From: Opitutia bacterium
Lineage (GTDB): Bacteria; Verrucomicrobiota; Verrucomicrobiia; Opitutales; Opitutaceae
Length of the DNA stretch: 64,000 nt
Direction of reading: 5' to 3'
Assembly: GCA_947478395.1 (NCBI GenBank)
Contig: CANJVR010000001.1
Location: forward strand, 1 to 64,000
Made by a program: the position numbers
Shown: positions 39,001-45,000 of the stretch, piece after piece
Numbering within the stretch: position 1 is the stretch's first letter
Layout: each line of letters starts with the position of its first letter

Positions 39001-42000
39001 CGGTGGGCAAGGCGGCTAAGGGGGCTCGGGAGGTCGACGCGTTAGAGGAAGCGACGGGAAGAAAAATCAGGAAACGGCTCCCGCGCCCGATCTCGCTCTC
39101 CACCTCGAGGAAGCCGTGGTGCGCACGAACAATCGATGCGACCGTCGACAGACCGAGGCCGGTGCCCTTCCCGATTTCCTTGGTGGTAAAAAACGGCTCG
39201 AAGATTTTTTCTTGCAGCTCGCGCGTCATCCCGACGCCGGTGTCGGCCACGGACATGCAAATGTATTGCCCGGGCCTGATCTCACCCTTTTCCCGCGCCC
39301 GCGTTTCGTTCACCGCGACTTCCTCCAGCTGGATGCGCAAGTCACCGCCATCGGGCATGGCATCGCGGGCATTGACGCAAAGGTTCACCAAAACCTGGTG
39401 TAAATGCGTCGCGTCGCATTCCACCAATTTGAGATTCGCCGGGACCTCGGAGCTGACACGAATGGAACAGGGCAGCGTGGCGGCCATCATGCCGCGGACT
39501 TCCTGAACGATATGGTCGAGAGCCGTCGGCTCGATTTTCCTCGCGCCACCGCCGGCAAACAGCAGCACCTGTCTCACCATATCAGCTCCGCGGCCGGCCG
39601 CAGATTTCACCATCTCGAGAATCCTCGTTCGCTCCGGTTCCGGCGTGACGGCTAGCAAATCGCTCGCGAGCAAAATGGGGGCCAAGACATTGTTGAGGTC
39701 GTGGGCAATTCCGCTCGCCAAGGTTCCGATACTCTGGAGCCGTTGCGTGCGCAGAAACTGATCGGCGGCTTTCTTCCGCTCGGTGGCATCCGTGTTGACG
39801 ACGAGAATTTTCTGGGGCGCGCCGGCTTCGTCCCGGACCAGCGTCCAGCGCGACTCCACCGTCCGTTCCCCGCCATTGAAGGTAATATGGCTCAATTCGC
39901 CGGTCCATTCGCCGCTGCGTAAAGTTTCCCGCTCCGCCAGCTGGGCGACAGGATCCTTCTCCTCGCCGAGCAGCGCGGGGGCTTTTTTTCCCATGACATT
40001 CACGGCCAGATGGCCGTAAAGGCGCTCGGCGCTGCAATTCCAGAAACTGATCGAGCCCGCGAGATCGCGAACGTAAATCGCGTCACGCGCCTTCGCGAGC
40101 AAGTCTGCCTGTTCCCGGGTCTGCGCTTCCATCTTGTCCCTGAACTCGATTTCCACGCGGAGCGCTTCGTTGGCCTGCGAAAGCTCCCGGGTGCGTTCCT
40201 CGACGCGCTTCTCAAGCAAGTCGCGCGCGAGCCGTAGCTCCCGCTGCAGACGGTGATTCAAGAGCGCCATTTCCACCGTGATCTGAAGTTCGCGTTCCTT
40301 GAACGGCTTCAAGAGGTAGCTGGCCGGGTAGGCAAACTTGGCGCGATTCAGTGTCTTCTCATCGGAGTTGGCCGTGAGAAAAACGATCGGCAAGTCGTGA
40401 CGCTCGCGGATCACCGCCGCCGCCACGATGCCGTCCATCGGGCCGCGCAGAAAAATATCCATCAGCATCAGATCCGGCTTCAGCTCCGCCGCCAGGGTCA
40501 CGGCCTGTTCACCCGTGGCGACAATACCACACACCTCAAACCCGAGCTTCGTGAGGCGTCGGCTTACATCGAGAGCGATCAGGCTCTCGTCTTCGACAAT
40601 CAGGATGCGGGGCAAAGGATTCATGCTCGTCCGGGATGAATTTCAGGACTCGAAATCTCCGGCACAGTGAGCTCAAAAACGGTGCCCTCGCCGGGACTGG
40701 ATTTTATTTCGATCTCGCCCTGGATCTGCTGCGCGAGCGTGAAGACGAGCTGCATGCCCAGCGATTCAGTGCGGCGTAGATCCAAGCCGAGCGGGATTCC
40801 CCGGCCCGTGTCTGCGACCCGCATCACGATGAAACCGGGGCTCCGGCGCTTGAGCACAACGTTAACCGCACCCGTGCGGCCGTCGGGGAACGCGTGCTTG
40901 TAGGCGTTCGAGACCAGTTCGTTGATGATCAGTCCGCAAGGGATCGCGGCGTCGATCGCGAGGCGAATCTCGTCGGCTTCGAGCGTGAAGCGAATCTCGC
41001 TCGCCGACGGACTGAAGCTTGCGGCGAGATTTTCCGTCAGCTCGCGCAGGTAGTCGGCGAAATCGACCCAGGCCAGATCGTCGGACTGATAAAGTTTTTC
41101 GTGCACCAGTGCCATCGCGGCGATGCGGCTCTGGGTATCGACGATGAACGGACGCGCCTGTGCGTCGGGCAGAAAATCGAGCTGGAGGTTCAACAGGCTC
41201 GAGACGACCTGCATGTTATTTTTCACCCGGTGATGGACCTCCTTGAGCAGCGCGTCCTTTTCTTGGAGCGAGGAGCGCAGCGCATCCTGGGCGCGCTTGC
41301 GCTCTTCGAGTTCGATCCGCAGGCGCTCGTTGGTCTCCGTCAGGGCGGCGCGCGACTGCAACAAACCTTCGCGCGCGCCCTGGAGTCCTTCCGCCGCGCG
41401 GCCGATGCCTTCCTGCAGCAGATTGAAATTGTGCGCCATATCCCCGACTTCGTCGCGCGAATTGACGACGATCGGCGTCAGGACGAAGTTGGCCTTGGCC
41501 GAGTCAAGCTGGCCGGCGGCAAGGGCGCGCATGGCCCGCGCGAAATCGGCGAGCGTGCCGGAAACGAGGCTGTTTGCCGCGTTCGAAATCTGCACGGCGG
41601 AGTGCGCGATCATCCCGGGCAGAATCAAGCCCACGCAGACCGTCAGCAGTGCGACCACGACGAAAATATCCTCCAGCGCGACGATCAGGATGGTATTTTT
41701 CTCGGGGACGGACCTGACCGCGATCACGTAGCCGACCGCGTCGAACGCCAGAACCGCGAGCATTGCACCGGTGAGTTTGAGGTGAAGGGTGCGGGCGATG
41801 CCGGGCAAACCGGCTTTGCGCCGGTCGGAGAATTTTCGCCACGCGTAGGCCGCGGATCCGGAATACGCGAAGACAAAGCCGACGATCACCGTGATCAGTC
41901 CAAACTGCTCAAATCCCAGCACGACGGTCAGCCCCCAAACGCCGGCCGCGATCAACCCGAGTACAATTGTACCTTTCGGAGCCCGATACGGCCGGGGTGC

Positions 42001-45000
42001 CTCCGGCTGGCTGCGCCGCAGGAGCCACACGGCGACGTTCGGCAGCGCGATGCCGATTAAGTAAGTCAGGTTGGCCGCCGCGATCAGCCAGACTGGATCG
42101 CCGATCAGGAGAAAAATAATCGCCATCACTGCAGTGAAAACCGTCGCCGCCCACGGCGCATCGGTGCGCGACCGCAACGCGAGGAATTCCGGCAGAAGCC
42201 CGTCCTCGGAAAGTTGCGACAGGGTACGCGCGGCTCCCGCCAGCGGAGCCATCGTGCCGTGAAACATGTTCATCATCATGAACCAGATCGCCGCGCCCTT
42301 CGCGGCACTGCCGAGCAGCGGCGCAAAGGTCGGACCAAGCTCCAACGCGAGATCCTTGCCCATCGGCTCCGGCCCGAGCGTTCCGAGCCATATGAGCGGG
42401 AGAATGATGAAGTAGAGACTCGCCATCGCCGCGCTGGCGAACATCGCGCGCGGGACATTCTTGGCGGGGTCGATGGTTTCGCCCACGTGACACGCCGCCT
42501 GCTCAAAGGCCGGTGCGGCAAATCCCACGAGGTAAAGACCGGCCATCACACTCGTCACGCCACCGAACCAACCCGGGAACGGCACGGTGAGGTGAAAAGT
42601 GAACGCTTGCTGCCAGTTAACATCGCCATGGACGACCGGGACTAACGCCGAAAGAAAAGCGAGCACCGCGGAAACGGTCGCGATCGGCATCGCCAGGCGC
42701 ATGACCCATTTGACGCCGCACAGATTAACGACCGTAAAAAAGACCACGATCCCGGAGGCAAGCAACGGCACCGAAATCCACGGGAGATACCATTGCTTGA
42801 TCGCCGACGCGGAGAGCAGCGCCGTCAGGCCGCACGTCGGCACCCAACCCCACCAATAGCAAACGCCCGTGAGATTCGCCAAGACCGGGCTGAGCGGCCG
42901 GAACGCCTCCGCGCAGGTGGCGGCGATTCCACCGACCCGGTTGGGATACATGAGAATCAACTCCGTCCAACCCGGCGTTGCCGCCCAGCTTAGGAGCAGT
43001 CCGATGATCAGCAGTAGCACTGCGGCGCTACCCTGGCCCGGAATCGATTCCTGCCCGACAAACAGCGCGCCGAGCAGGAACAAGCTCTGATTGATTCCAC
43101 CCATCGCGACACACGTCGTGCCAAACCAACCGACGGTACGGGGATGCAAAAGCGTGGCGGGATCTCGTTCAGCGACGTCGCCTGGTACAGGTTTCATAGA
43201 AAAGGCCAAAATCGGGACCATCCCATCTAGCTTGATTCCATAAGCAACGAATTCATCGCACAAAAAATTCAACCTCCTCGCTGGACGCGGGCGGAATACT
43301 CCATTTTATCCCCGGCCACTCACCGCCTGAACCGCGAGAGACGGACGGCGGACGGCAGCCACGACTGTTTCTCGATGGACGGAACTCCGCCTTGACAGTG
43401 CTCGAGCCGCTCGCGAATTTCTTCCCCTCTGCACGGCGGCCATAGCTCAGTTGGTTAGAGCACAAGATTGTGATTCTTGGGGTCGCGGGTTCGAATCCCG
43501 TTGGCCGCCCCATTTTACGACGCGAGCGGTCGACCCGAGACGCTCGCCCCAAACTGCCCGTGCACCGTCTCCAAGTACCTTTGCGTCGTCCGTAAGCTCC
43601 GTGGATAGAAAGCTTTCTCAGCTCGCCGTTGCTGAATGACGTCGGCCGAAACGCCGCAAGAGCGGGCGAAGCCCGTAATACAGCGCGCCCACAATGAGCG
43701 GCACGCTCAGTCCCCAGGCCGTGGCGGCGTGCACCCCGGTCCATCCGAAGCGCCGCAAAAAAGTCCACGGATCGTCCTTGAACGCCTTCATCAAAATCCC
43801 AATCGACAGCGGCATAGACTCGGCGCCCCAGATTTTTTCCCCGATCCGCACGTAGGCCAGAATCAGCGCGAGCTGTAGCGGCCCGAGCAGCTGATTCAAA
43901 GTTTGCAGGATAGGTTGGTTCAACCGCAGCCATAGCCCCACGCCCAGATTCAAAAGGGCGGTAAATCCCAGGAACGGCAGCAGCGAACACGCCGTGCCCA
44001 CGGCCAGCGTGAGCGCGATGCGATCCGGCGTGACGCCTTGCGTGAGCTGCGCGAGCACCGGGGCCAGCACCCGACGGCGCCAGAAGGATTCTTTTTTCGG
44101 CGCGGCGGCCATGGGCGGGGGAGGAATCATGAACTCGATGATAGGTCAGCCCTGCACCCTCGGATGCGCTCATGCATCGTCCGTTACACCGACAGGTAAG
44201 GCTCGGCCGGCCGAAATCCAGGGAGCTCGCAGGCCGCGTCGCGACTTTTCATATCCGGAAAAAGATAAACGGCATAGCCGCCGAATCCACCGCCGCAATA
44301 TTTCCACGCCTGCGGACGGCAGGCGGCGAGCGCGGCGTGCGAATCGGCCGCCGGATCGCCCGGCAGCGCCTGCATGCCTTCCTTGCGCTGCACGGCGTAA
44401 GATTGCCGCACGCCCGAGGCGAGTCCGGCGAAATCACGCGCCCACACCGCGTCGCGCGCGGTGCGACCGGCGCGTTCGATCGCGTCGTAATCGCGGCTTT
44501 GGTCCACCACCGCAGGCGTCGAGTGTTGCTGCCCGGTCCAATAGAGCGCCAGACGCCCCCGCAACAATTCACCATCCGTCTTAACCTCCAGTTCCGGATG
44601 CGCCCCACTCCGCCACACGCATAAACCGGTTTCGCTGATCACCGCCGGGTCCTGCCAGCCCACGCCCAGATCCAACTCCGACGAAACGCCGTCGCGACCG
44701 TTGATCAATGCCCACGCCCCGCTGCCACCGAGGCCCGCATTCTGGTGATACGGCCAATCGCGCAATGATACCGTCGGCGAGATCGCGCAGTTGACGATAA
44801 ACCCGCCCGGCCGCGCAAAACGCGGCACATCGAGCCAGCCGCCCGCAAAATCCACGCGCAAGGGCGCCACCTGCGGGGCGCGAATCCAGCGCACGATCTC
44901 CGTCGTGGAAATCGGCGGGAACTCCGGCGGCGTCTTCGGCATCACCACGTAGCGCGCGCCAACTTCCGCGCACAGCGCCCGTTTCAAATCCGCATATTTG

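Follow-up and report, generated by a model that had tools for sequence, protein, structure and literature searches.

A 64,000-nucleotide stretch of a contig from a freshwater Opitutia bacterium (the window, meaning the whole stretch that was analysed) encodes an 866-amino-acid sensor kinase at 40621..43221 (minus strand). It is probably a transporter-derived membrane receptor kinase, in which a permease-like body would detect a small solute and a membrane hairpin and HAMP domain would relay the signal to a histidine kinase and on to a phosphorelay. As such it would represent a widespread, strongly conserved family of transporter-derived receptors. The novelty lies in the architecture and not in the principle, because APC-fold receptors such as GerAB and Ssy1 are already known in other wiring. 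A literature search found no paper on an APC permease-HAMP-kinase architecture, in keeping with the first-pass annotation, which had called the module unstudied.

The sensor gene is intact as annotated (866 codons plus stop), and the Pfam matches on which the proposed permease-HAMP-HisKA_2/HWE fusion was based are reproduced: AA_permease_2 at residues 31-437 (4.2e-34, 118.6 bits, cut-off 27), AA_permease at 53-379, HAMP at 557-605 (26.2 bits, cut-off 25), HisKA_2 at 661-735 (8.9e-27), HWE_HK at 661-728 and HATPase_c at 764-855. The protein has no Pfam match to SSF or STAC, so its proposed separation from SLC5/STAC sensors holds. The open frame spans 40621..43272 (minus strand), or 883 amino acids from a TTG, with the annotated ATG at 43221 in the same frame. 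The sequence at 43261..43279 (minus strand) suggests a different start: GAGGAGG at 43279-43273 is followed 9 nucleotides downstream by an in-frame TTG at 43263-43261, which is likely the true start and would yield 880 amino acids, the length annotated for the near-identical public proteins P0005-P0012. Because conservation is lacking in the first 25 residues, the choice of start has no effect on sensor kinase function.

A hydropathy scan detects 14 hydrophobic helices; a K/R-rich loop separates TM12 from TM13, and one of seven residues separates TM13 from TM14. Residues 26-469 (41815..43146, minus strand) contain 12 of these helices and, as judged from AA_permease_2, AF2 and Foldseek, constitute an entire permease body of the APC family (SLC7-like, LeuT fold). 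The AF2 model, a monomer built on a 74-row alignment, reaches a mean pLDDT of 83.4 and a pTM of 0.79, superseding an earlier model described as poor. In it, helix breaks fall at N44 in TM1 and at 233-234 in TM6; in APC/SLC7-like, LeuT-fold transporters these discontinuous helices form the substrate site. The best 24 Foldseek matches listed are all APC/SLC7 transporters (TM-score on the target 0.71-0.80, 15-20% identity), and matches include LAT1, BasC, y+LAT1/2, AdiC, GkApcT and ApcT. For LAT1, BasC, AdiC, GkApcT and ApcT the target TM-score is 0.73-0.80. The solved sequences nearest to the permease part are those of y+LAT1/2 (6e-12); the first-pass annotation had named both these proteins and ApcT.

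The closest characterised transporter relative is the Methylocella silvestris TMAO permease TmoP, whose name and function are given in PMC4543880, citing Zhu et al. 2014. Its NCBIfam model (NF053774) is the best permease-type match of the sensor (2.3e-37), and the alignment spans the whole 12-TM core (26% identity, E 5e-25), from R..W.G before TM1 to PRPY(R/K)AP after TM10. Both proteins carry the APC hallmarks E87L..P93NxxGG, FE240 (TM6), R332..Q336..D340GxLP344 and PRPYRAP, and TmoP also has a TM13. However, the sensor is not a TmoP family member, because it scores 128.9 bits against a cut-off of 690, and TmoP is unfused and has 13 helices, not 14. In Hansschlegelia quercus, a true TmoP and a sensor coexist as separate genes.

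The putative pocket would be formed by TM1, TM3, TM6, TM8 and TM10, and its sensor-typical residues are G41-G42-x-N44(-Q45), Y122/W123/W126, F234/P237, N318(/H321) and N384/Y387, positions assigned by helix position and alignment to SLC7 and TmoP sequences and not by measured distances. The same helices are the most conserved (TM3 0.91, TM6 0.87, TM10 0.86, TM8 0.85, TM1 0.84), and values are lower in TM4 (0.68), TM11 (0.73) and TM5 (0.74). The pocket residues Q45, W124, H245 and H321 belong to the core clade and are not retained in relatives of 33-50% identity. Since several core pocket residues are not kept in these divergent relatives, the extended family need not share one ligand.

The coupler is not HAMP alone, but a conserved TM13-TM14 hairpin plus HAMP. 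Hydropathy, AF2 and conservation place the hairpin at residues 479-538 (41608..41787, minus strand), with a periplasmic loop of about seven residues and a family signature of K482, D494, G497, Y498, E517, D518, F520 and P535. AF2 predicts helices at 479-504 and 510-568, the latter running unbroken from TM14 into AS1 of the HAMP domain, followed by a connector (569-590) and AS2 from 591. HAMP, together with the conserved beginning of the output helix, occupies 41362..41607 (minus strand; Pfam, AF2 and conservation), and the cassette ends near residue 620, beyond which conservation falls from 0.77 to 0.47. D518 is present in 18 of 18 core and 18 of 20 divergent members; D494 is likewise invariant in the 18 core members and is found in 15 of the 20 divergent ones (N in four). 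G497, Y498 and F520 are similarly conserved in both groups. The predicted membrane-embedded acidic pair, D494 and D518, is the most persistent signature of the family. It is missing from TmoP, which has A, G or V at position 494 and no TM14. Across 38 sensors, no more than 17 positions reach 95% conservation, several of them in TM13/14 and HAMP.

The output half begins with a coiled-coil linker and the HisKA_2/HWE dimerisation-phosphoacceptor domain (residues 621-735; 41017..41361, minus strand), defined by Pfam and by alignment to the blue-light HisKA_2 kinase 4r39, the solved sequence nearest to the kinase part (1.3e-15). The catalytic ATP-binding HATPase_c domain follows at residues 752-866 (40624..40968, minus strand; Pfam and sequence). 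The H-box (EVHHRVKNN, residues 660-668), N-box (ELVSNAYKHAF) and G-box (DTGRGIP) are intact. This half resembles LOV-histidine kinases and PhyK in combining HisKA_2 with HWE_HK (PhyK-like NCBIfam model, 159 bits), but those kinases are soluble or have LOV/PAS inputs, and its NCBIfam scores all lie far under the equivalog cut-offs (750 for PhyK).

A homologue search scored 8000 proteins, of which 1942 reached E<=1e-3. Each of the 120 matches listed is 75-100% identical across residues 1-620, and the outputs precomputed for them vary (HisKA_2; HisKA+REC+HPt; PAS arrays; GGDEF+EAL). In named genomes, all 69 complete homologues are fused to a signalling output, of four kinds: 12 carry HisKA_2, 45 HisKA with or without PAS, REC or HPt, seven GGDEF-EAL and three HATPase only, and two are fragments. 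On the module tree, the output type switches at least 11 times, and the starred branches alone force at least four changes for HisKA, two for HisKA_2 and three for GGDEF-EAL. On this comparison, the permease-TM13/14-HAMP region is a real shared cassette, and the earlier proposal of one input module with exchangeable outputs stands. The family extends to 33% identity and is still fused: all 20 divergent representatives (33-50% identity) are 801-1265 amino acids long, and 17 have a Pfam signalling match (14 HATPase_c, two GGDEF, one HAMP alone), the three without such a match being P0180, P0201 and P0211. Across the family, outputs include histidine kinases of two DHp types, GGDEF-EAL and GGDEF-HD. 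The short representatives examined are broken or partial (P0170 stops mid-TM12; the tail of P0199 looks frameshifted), and another short one, P0128, shares its cluster with a 905-amino-acid member. The Opitutia genome itself has no AA_permease_2 match besides the sensor, which, like the constant fusion to outputs, speaks for a dedicated sensor role.

Within its own phylum the family is rare and patchy, occurring in two of 401 sampled genomes, that of the Opitutia bacterium included. The sensor module itself was found in none of 24 same-family genomes (one draw). The claim that AA_permease is missing from all 17 congeners was not upheld, as a six-frame PF13520 search matched two of 15 same-genus genomes, one match being a 26.7-bit fragment with stops and the other an 86-bit match in a 673-amino-acid frame.

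Median pairwise identity is 70% across 74 modules from named genomes. The module is 71, 67 and 74% identical to its acidobacterial, Hansschlegelia and Methylophilus copies, compared with 43, 42 and 40% for TrpA. The claim that most columns are invariant is true for close relatives, but not for all 74 modules, in which 105 of 431 core columns are invariant. Against the Opitutia copy, 13 relatives with GC3 of 0.50-0.92 have dS from 0.99 to saturated and dN of 0.09-0.29, and dN/dS of the sensor is about 0.1 or lower. Because synonymous sites are saturated, this pattern reflects purifying selection and not recent transfer.

The sensor stop codon and the start codon of the next gene, g00036, share four nucleotides (ATGA, 40621..40624, minus strand; ...GGA CGA GCA TGA / ATG AAT CCT...), an overlap that fits translational coupling within one operon. 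This gene (38615..40624, minus strand; 669 amino acids) had been described as a receiver-PAS protein. Pfam confirms both domains, but that description is incomplete, as the protein is a whole REC-PAS-HisKA-HATPase-REC hybrid kinase. Its first receiver, REC1, has the acidic pocket E11 and D12 together with D56, T84 and K106. Full-length orthologues occupy the same place at loci L011, L020 and L050 (61-67% identity) and at L031, L032 and L043 (32-36%). Among the 15 sensors that are not hybrids (HisKA_2 or HATPase-only), 11 have a REC-containing hybrid kinase downstream on the same strand within 200 nucleotides, and at least eight of these 11 kinases have an N-terminal REC. The neighbours give no clue to the regulon, because no conserved transport or metabolic gene adjoins the sensor, the largest non-signalling neighbour cluster occurring in five of 80 loci.

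Since the sensor kinase has no periplasmic domain, any stimulus must enter through the membrane part. The TM13-14 hairpin has almost no periplasmic loop, and TM14 continues unbroken into HAMP, the coiled coil and the kinase. In the mechanism that we propose, a small solute would bind the canonical pocket of TM1, TM3, TM6, TM8 and TM10, and the resulting shift in the conformational equilibrium of the transporter would be relayed through TM12 and the TM13/14 hairpin, in which D494/Y498 and E517/D518 would be embedded in the membrane. The shift would then arrive at a dimeric HAMP bundle and set kinase activity; from general knowledge of HAMP domains and histidine kinases, dimerisation would be through TM13/14 and HAMP. 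To judge from gene order, the phosphoryl group would most likely pass to REC1 of the coupled hybrid kinase and thereby enter a multi-kinase phosphorelay. We suggest, with low confidence, that a small nitrogenous organocation or amine, and not a standard alpha-amino acid, is the ligand.

Several known systems share parts of this design. CbrA and CrbS (Pseudomonas, Vibrio) likewise place a complete LeuT-fold transporter, serving as input, N-terminal to a histidine kinase (PMC13022988; PMC7096432). As described, however, these SLC5-STAC sensor kinases have a 13-TM SSS/SLC5 body and not an APC/SLC7-like one with 12+2 helices, a cytoplasmic four-helix bundle, STAC, docks beneath their transporter in place of the TM13-14 hairpin and HAMP, and a small peptide, CbrX, is a partner of CbrA. 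Sd-Amt1 (Amt-HAMP-diguanylate cyclase) and Ks-Amt5 (Amt-histidine kinase) also combine a repurposed transporter fold with interchangeable transducers, linked in Sd-Amt1 by HAMP, but their fold is the trimeric, channel-like Amt/Rh fold and not LeuT, their ligand is ammonium, and HAMP directly follows the last native helix without an added hairpin. GerAB (the germinant-receptor B subunits) and yeast Ssy1 share an APC-family transporter fold with the proposed receptor and are described as sensing amino acids and not importing them (PMC8617281, PMC12958826). They signal through separate partners (GerAA/GerAC; Ptr3/Ssy5), have no covalently fused HAMP-kinase or cyclase, and by their descriptions belong to different APC subfamilies. 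The TCDB 'Sensor Kinase-MFS Fusion' family 2.A.1.34 (PMC3924187) is another catalogued class of transporter-kinase fusion, set apart by its description as having an MFS fold.

These precedents bear on an unlikely alternative, namely that uptake comes first, the APC body importing a substrate and the kinase reporting transport turnover and not occupancy. CbrA is the model for this arrangement, as its transporter body is described as a 'transceptor' input that transports histidine and couples transport with signalling (PMC13022988). The APC motifs tied to the transport cycle are all intact in the sensor and common to the transporter TmoP, conservation exceeds the need of a mere binding site, and with no other AA_permease_2 match in its genome the sensor could also serve uptake. 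However, intact motifs do not show transport, because Amt-type receptors are described as retaining all transporter motifs, including Ks-Amt5, which does not translocate ammonium (PMC11152129; PMC5764959). Moreover, a nutrient importer would be expected also to occur alone, yet no unfused close relative is found among the 69 complete homologues, and the family is rare and accessory in its own phylum and is never found beside catabolic genes.

A receptor with a solute-binding pocket is also favoured over the quite improbable reading that the permease body is only a membrane scaffold or dimerisation platform, with protons, cations, membrane potential or lipid state sensed by the TM13/14 acidic cluster, or a stimulus sensed by cytoplasmic parts or partner PAS domains. 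The presence in TM13/14 and HAMP of several of the 17 most conserved positions would suit such a scaffold, and in the extended family D494, Y498, D518 and F520 surpass the putative pocket residues in conservation. Kinases of the BceS/LiaS type, with two helices and minimal loops, are known to sense within the membrane. Yet an identity of 67-74% across phyla, at saturated synonymous sites, would not be maintained in a passive anchor, nor would the pocket helices be the most conserved ones. The sensor-wide differences from TmoP (G42, N44, Y122, P237, N318) fall on exactly those helices.

It is very improbable that the direction is reversed, with a cytoplasmic signal or phosphorylation state acting through the kinase and HAMP to gate uptake by the permease. 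Some carriers of the APC superfamily are indeed gated by C-terminal regulatory domains, and the reversal is formally possible for any fusion, with nothing specific in its favour here, but a single cassette shared by outputs of unrelated chemistry shows the pattern of an input module, and HAMP, placed downstream of membrane helices, converts input into output. An artefact of gene calling or assembly, or a pseudogene in decay, is refuted: broken members do exist (the Paraburkholderia phytofirmans copy ends mid-TM12, P0199 has its aberrant tail, and L042 and L078 contain stops), but here the frame is uninterrupted for 883 codons, the low dN/dS signals constraint, 69 complete genes, drawn from independent assemblies that include an isolate and a complete genome, show the same fusion, and a single 5435-nucleotide contig of another study covers both the sensor and partner genes, with 15 differences.

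Metagenomes of freshwater, lakes and biofilm from further studies also contain a near-identical gene pair. Three short RNA-library contigs, which could be DNA carry-over, lie wholly on the sensor gene and give a weak hint that it is transcribed.

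The sensor gene g00037 occupies a single uninterrupted open frame of 883 codons on the reverse strand (40621-43272). Its annotated product of 866 aa begins at ATG 43221 (-). An alternative TTG start at 43263 (-), 9 nt after a GAGGAGG sequence, would give 880 aa, the length at which near-identical public proteins are called, and is the likelier of the two. The choice is immaterial because the first 25 residues are not conserved, and residue numbers here follow the 866-aa reading.

Two Pfam families place the sensor among the APC permeases with scores above their curated cut-offs, namely AA_permease_2 (PF13520, residues 31-437, 118.6 bits against 27, E 4.2e-34) and AA_permease (PF00324, 60.6 bits against 24.6). 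A HAMP domain follows at residues 557-605 (PF00672, 26.2 bits, cut-off 25), and the C-terminal half matches HisKA_2 (PF07568, residues 661-735, 93.4 bits, E 8.9e-27), HWE_HK in the same region (PF07536, 28.9 bits) and HATPase_c (PF02518, residues 764-855, 48.4 bits). The motifs of this HisKA_2/HWE kinase are intact when read from the sequence: the DHp domain carries the H-R-x-K-N motif as HHRVKNN at 662-668, of which we take the His of HRVKN to be the phosphoacceptor, and HATPase_c carries the N-box ELVSNAYKH and the G-box DTGRG. No NCBIfam model reaches its cut-off; the best kinase-type match is PhyK (159.5 bits against 750), and the best permease-type match is NF053774, the equivalog model of the trimethylamine-oxide (TMAO) permease TmoP (128.9 bits against 690). 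Public records already label such proteins 'two-component sensor histidine kinase/amino acid transporter' or 'amino acid permease', so the architecture itself is visible in databases.

A hydropathy scan resolves 12 permease helices, a K/R-rich cytoplasmic loop (459-478) and two added helices (481-502 and 510-538). Only ~7 periplasmic residues join the added helices, and there is therefore no extracytoplasmic sensor domain. The AF2 model of the first-pass annotation was poor (pLDDT 59); this is superseded by a model of residues 1-640 built from a 74-row alignment of modules, which has a mean pLDDT of 83.4 and a pTM of 0.79. Like LeuT-fold carriers, the new model has interrupted TM1 and TM6 helices, with the breaks at residue 44 and at 233-234, respectively. 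A single helix (510-568) extends from TM14 into AS1 of HAMP, followed by a connector (569-590) and AS2 (591-639), and P535, G570 and E591 are conserved. By Pfam match and model, HAMP comes directly after a transmembrane helix.

Foldseek comparison with the PDB likewise supports a 12-helix LeuT fold with discontinuous TM1 and TM6. The first 24 matches listed are all APC/SLC7 carriers, including LAT1, BasC, y+LAT1/2, AdiC, Asc-1, GkApcT, ApcT and xCT, with target TM-scores of 0.71-0.80 at 15-20% identity (0.73-0.80 for LAT1, AdiC, BasC, GkApcT and ApcT). Among these solved structures none covers the TM13-14-HAMP extension. In sequence comparison the profile of the 74-row alignment aligns to SLC7 chains solely from TM4 on, which makes TM1-3 the most derived part of the permease.

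The closest characterised transporter is TmoP, which has the APC hallmark motifs in common with the sensor and is 26% identical to it over the whole core (E 5e-25), as compared with a true member of NF053774 (locus L091, 877 bits). Family-wide differences from TmoP fall at G42, N44, Y122, S191, P237, N318 and W378. TmoP has a TM13 with A, G or V at the position of D494, and lacks TM14, and the comparison suggests that the sensors may descend from a TmoP-like carrier of 13 helices to which TM14 and HAMP were added. TMAO was considered as a substrate assignment and rejected, because TmoP is a separate gene at this low identity and differs at pocket positions; we keep it as the nearest characterised relative. 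Two genomes, Hansschlegelia quercus (G041) and G193, encode a permease above the TmoP cut-off and an APC sensor as separate genes.

Conservation is unevenly distributed over the permease. The best-conserved helices (TM3 0.91, TM6 0.87, TM10 0.86, TM8 0.85, TM1 0.84) are the substrate-site helices of LeuT-fold carriers, and peripheral helices are less conserved (TM4 0.68, TM11 0.73, TM5 0.74). In an alignment with y+LAT2, the sensor's F234-A-A-P-A-F-E stands opposite the SLC7 TM6 motif F-S-Y-S-G-W-D, whose first Phe is presumably a gate residue. Q45, W124, H245 and H321 never vary within the core clade but do so in divergent members; judged from these sequences, the core clade probably shares one ligand, and the wider family may not.

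The most persistent signature specific to the sensors lies in the TM13/14 hairpin and comprises K482, D494, G497, Y498, E517, D518 and F520. D494 is Asp in all 18 core members and in 15 of the 20 divergent ones (Asn in four), and D518 is Asp in all 18 and in 18 of 20, respectively. This conserved acidic hairpin is a candidate coupling device. We define the cassette by an APC core, a TM13-14 hairpin with D494..GY498 and (E)D518-x-F520, a HAMP domain and an attached output. The window protein has all of these elements, and they are kept in the 74 modules and in most of the 20 divergent members.

Among 185,579 species, each represented by one genome, a scan detected 296 stretches that encode relatives. 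The best 80 of these loci are 66-86% identical over residues ~25-620, and complete relatives are all long genes, mostly of 853-1428 aa. By record title, the 73 loci that were aligned belong to Verrucomicrobiota (50), Pseudomonadota (15), Planctomycetota (2), Acidobacteriota (2) and, with one locus each, Cyanobacteriota, Actinomycetota, Campylobacterota and Omnitrophota. Carriers in Pseudomonadota include Methylophilaceae, Methylotenera, Methylophilus, Rhizomicrobium, Nevskia and the isolate Hansschlegelia quercus. The family is rare and patchy: its module is in none of 24 same-family genomes (one draw) and in two of 401 sampled genomes of the phylum, the window's own included. The second of these carriers is a same-family genome in which the match has contig coordinates identical to those in strain IMCC26134. 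The gene is single-copy in the six genomes checked.

All 69 complete relatives whose C-terminal parts were scanned with Pfam carry a signalling output after the module, and none is a free-standing permease; fusion to an output is obligatory. The outputs are HisKA_2 with HATPase (12), HisKA with HATPase and optional PAS, REC or HPt domains (45), GGDEF with EAL (7, of which three have PAS), HATPase only (3) and fragments (2). An exhaustive search of 1.84 billion cluster representatives returned 1491 matches at E<=1e-3, 564 at 1e-10 and 260 at 1e-30, the full-length ones grading from 78% to 33% identity. Twenty divergent members (33-50% identity, 801-1265 aa) were also scanned. Fourteen have HATPase_c (four also with a Pfam HisKA), one has GGDEF+EAL, one GGDEF+HD and one HAMP alone; three have no signalling family (P0180, P0201 and P0211), and P0211 has no Pfam match whatsoever.

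Short representatives were considered as possible unfused close relatives. Of eight, five (P0153, P0156, P0187, P0197 and P0204) come without genomic context, and the three that were judged turned out to be truncated, frameshifted or grouped with full-length proteins. P0199 ends in a frameshift-like tail, and the cluster of P0128 includes a member of 905 aa. P0170/P0274, from a cultured strain of Paraburkholderia phytofirmans and annotated as an APC family permease, is 442-455 aa long and 53% identical, ends in mid-TM12 and has lost Q45, F234, H245, E248, N318 and H321, among them several that the core clade keeps invariant; it is probably the remnant of a decaying sensor gene. An ESM Atlas search that excluded signalling families retrieved generic APC permease clusters only.

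The 74 modules have a median pairwise identity of 70% and a minimum of 57%, with invariant columns in the core (105 of 431), TM13-14 (16 of 58) and HAMP (5 of 66). Conservation falls from 0.77 in AS2 to 0.47 beyond residue 620, where the outputs are joined on. In the HisKA_2 subgroup, module identity is 70-86%, and the kinase half is 41-45% identical outside the closest clade. A maximum-likelihood tree of the modules (74 rows and 623 columns, quick search) requires output type to change at least 11 times, compared with a mean of 21.5 for shuffled labels; if the count is restricted to starred branches, the four output types still require 4, 2, 3 and 1 changes. Outputs have been exchanged modularly on one shared cassette. 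The first-pass annotation, which had described a transporter-like APC sensor module with varied outputs, was essentially right, with corrections.

The phylum label changes 11 times on the same tree, and some of these changes perhaps reflect binning errors in metagenome-assembled genomes (MAGs). Module identity to acidobacterial, Hansschlegelia and Methylophilus copies is 71, 67 and 74%, whereas TrpA from the same genomes is 43, 42 and 40% identical. Recent horizontal transfer would be one source of such high identity, and it is rejected because synonymous divergence between the window module and 13 relatives ranges from a dS of 0.99 to saturation (dN 0.09-0.29) and GC3 is adapted to each host (0.50-0.92 in the 13 relatives, as low as 0.36 in a further pair of loci that were set against one another, 0.77 in the window). 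One exception is a pair of almost identical modules in MAGs labelled 'Verrucomicrobia subdivision 6' (L075) and 'Aliarcobacter sp.' (L076). Their dS of 0.10, dN of 0.004 and end branches of 0.0025 and 0.011 suggest that one of the two was misbinned or that the module moved between phyla very recently. A sequence labelled 'uncultured Actinomycetota' (L028) nests within a starred clade of Verrucomicrobiae, for which mis-binning is as likely as transfer.

The sensor gene is coupled with a hybrid kinase gene, g00036 (38615-40624, reverse strand, 669 aa), the stop and start codons of the two overlapping as ATGA. Its product had been taken for a receiver-PAS protein and is a full REC-PAS-HisKA-HATPase-REC hybrid kinase. 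Full-length orthologues of this partner, 61-67% identical, occur at three other sensor loci (L011, L020 and L050), and 11 of 15 non-hybrid sensors are followed by a REC-containing hybrid kinase, at least eight of these with an N-terminal REC. At a Chthoniobacterales locus (L008:11654-16260), two genes come after that of the sensor, one for H-NOX (HNOB) and one for a hybrid kinase of 1381 aa that combines GAF domains with HPt and with two copies each of HisKA stretches and REC domains. This gene order connects the APC sensor with a putative relay for the sensing of NO or haem gas.

Other neighbours vary. When 489 neighbour proteins of 80 loci were clustered and 81 putatively operonic ones scanned with Pfam, two-component proteins alone recurred (31 loci), and no conserved metabolic or transport neighbour emerged. 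Genomic context was dropped as a clue to ligand or regulon, the next largest cluster being present in 5 of the 80 loci. In the window, an amidase gene and ABC-transporter genes (an ATPase, a permease, an NMT1/THI5-like binding protein and a branched-chain-type permease) lie upstream and divergent at 45479-51002 (+). These genes point to a nitrogen compound that is taken up and hydrolysed, and are not conserved beside the sensor in other lineages among the 80 loci.

In the mechanism that we propose, solute binding in the canonical permease pocket would shift the carrier's conformational equilibrium, and TM12, together with the acidic TM13/14 hairpin, would pass this shift on to a HAMP dimer that controls the HisKA_2 kinase. 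The kinase would then phosphorylate REC1 of the downstream hybrid kinase, as the ATGA overlap and the conserved gene order hint. A more specific and distinctly speculative reading, which we consider unlikely as a whole, is that the cassette acts as a receptor that specifically binds a small nitrogenous organocation, such as a methylated amine or a related osmolyte, and does not transport it. Its remodelled TmoP-like pocket would be formed by GG-x-N in TM1, Y-W-W-G-W in TM3, F-A-A-P-A-F-E in TM6 and a Met/Asn/His-rich TM8. A previously undescribed coupler, the membrane-embedded Asp/Glu cluster on TM13/14, would turn LeuT-fold rocking into a HAMP signal. The cassette would have spread as a plug-in sensor among at least six phyla, nearly unchanged because ligand site, coupler and HAMP would co-evolve as one unit.

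APC-family folds reportedly act as receptors in GerAB and Ssy1. The sensor differs from the SLC5-STAC kinases CbrA and CrbS in that its fold matches APC/SLC7 and not SLC5, and neither SSF nor STAC is among its Pfam matches at E<=0.01. It also differs from the Amt-type receptors Ks-Amt5 and Sd-Amt1, which are marked by an 11-TM Amt/Rh domain with the N1/N2 ammonium site, in having an APC fold and no Amt match in Pfam. The transporter-as-receptor principle is established for SLC5-STAC kinases, of which CbrA is termed a 'rare transceptor' in a 2026 preprint (PMC13022988). It is established as well for Amt-type receptors, namely Ks-Amt5 and the Amt-HAMP-cyclase Sd-Amt1 (PMC11152129), and TCDB lists a family of MFS-sensor-kinase fusions (PMC3924187). 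In the searchable full-text literature, a scope that leaves aside subscription journals, InterPro and TCDB, we found no description of an APC/SLC7-like body fused to signalling enzymes, of the TM13/14-HAMP coupler or of the extent of the family.

Receptors that bacteria have made out of entire transporters still count as rarities, and APC/SLC7-like permeases represent a further transporter family recruited in this way. The family matters for its breadth, its modularity, its conservation across phyla well above that of TrpA, and its acidic hairpin. It appears to couple input to output in a manner of its own, through a hairpin of two helices that contains buried acidic residues and feeds HAMP. 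Across at least six phyla the cassette is exchanged among two histidine kinase types, c-di-GMP enzymes and phosphorelay hybrids. Conservation across phyla above the level of a housekeeping enzyme suggests that in freshwater and soil bacteria the ligand or the mechanism is unusually tightly constrained. The sensors offer a natural system for how a standard signalling converter reads the conformational cycle of a LeuT-fold carrier, in which one can ask whether binding or transport is the signal. Cultured carriers include H. quercus (L044), with a GGDEF-EAL output, and strain IMCC26134 (L067), with a hybrid-kinase output, and a defined ligand would make the cassette a ready-made biosensor part.

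A few further features surround the gene. Upstream lie tRNA-His (43436-43512, forward strand), which is the only Rfam match, and a DUF2062 gene (43618-44130). A 306-codon Arg/Ala-rich ORF at 43253-44173 (-) overlaps both and looks like a spurious frame in GC-rich DNA. A promoter and terminator scan of 38000-44500 gave nothing above shuffled sequences. The closest named relative, an 'uncultured Opitutae' genome (that of L011) whose TrpA is 76% identical to the window's, partly preserves the local synteny, since trpA and the sensor gene are near each other in both (~9 kb apart on one contig, G045:C74, and ~3 kb in the window).

The two-gene stretch also recurs in public sequencing data, where 19 of the 24 runs listed hold at least half of the sampled words and eight are flagged as possible sources. 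Three contigs of 198, 151 and 151 nt from a metatranscriptome (X20) lie wholly on the sensor gene, with 3, 1 and 1 differences, and are a weak hint of its transcription, as DNA carry-over is possible in RNA libraries. Three runs labelled as freshwater, lake-water or biofilm metagenomes cover both genes, X15 and X17 in pieces and X9 with one contig of 5435 nt that spans the sensor and partner genes with 15 differences.
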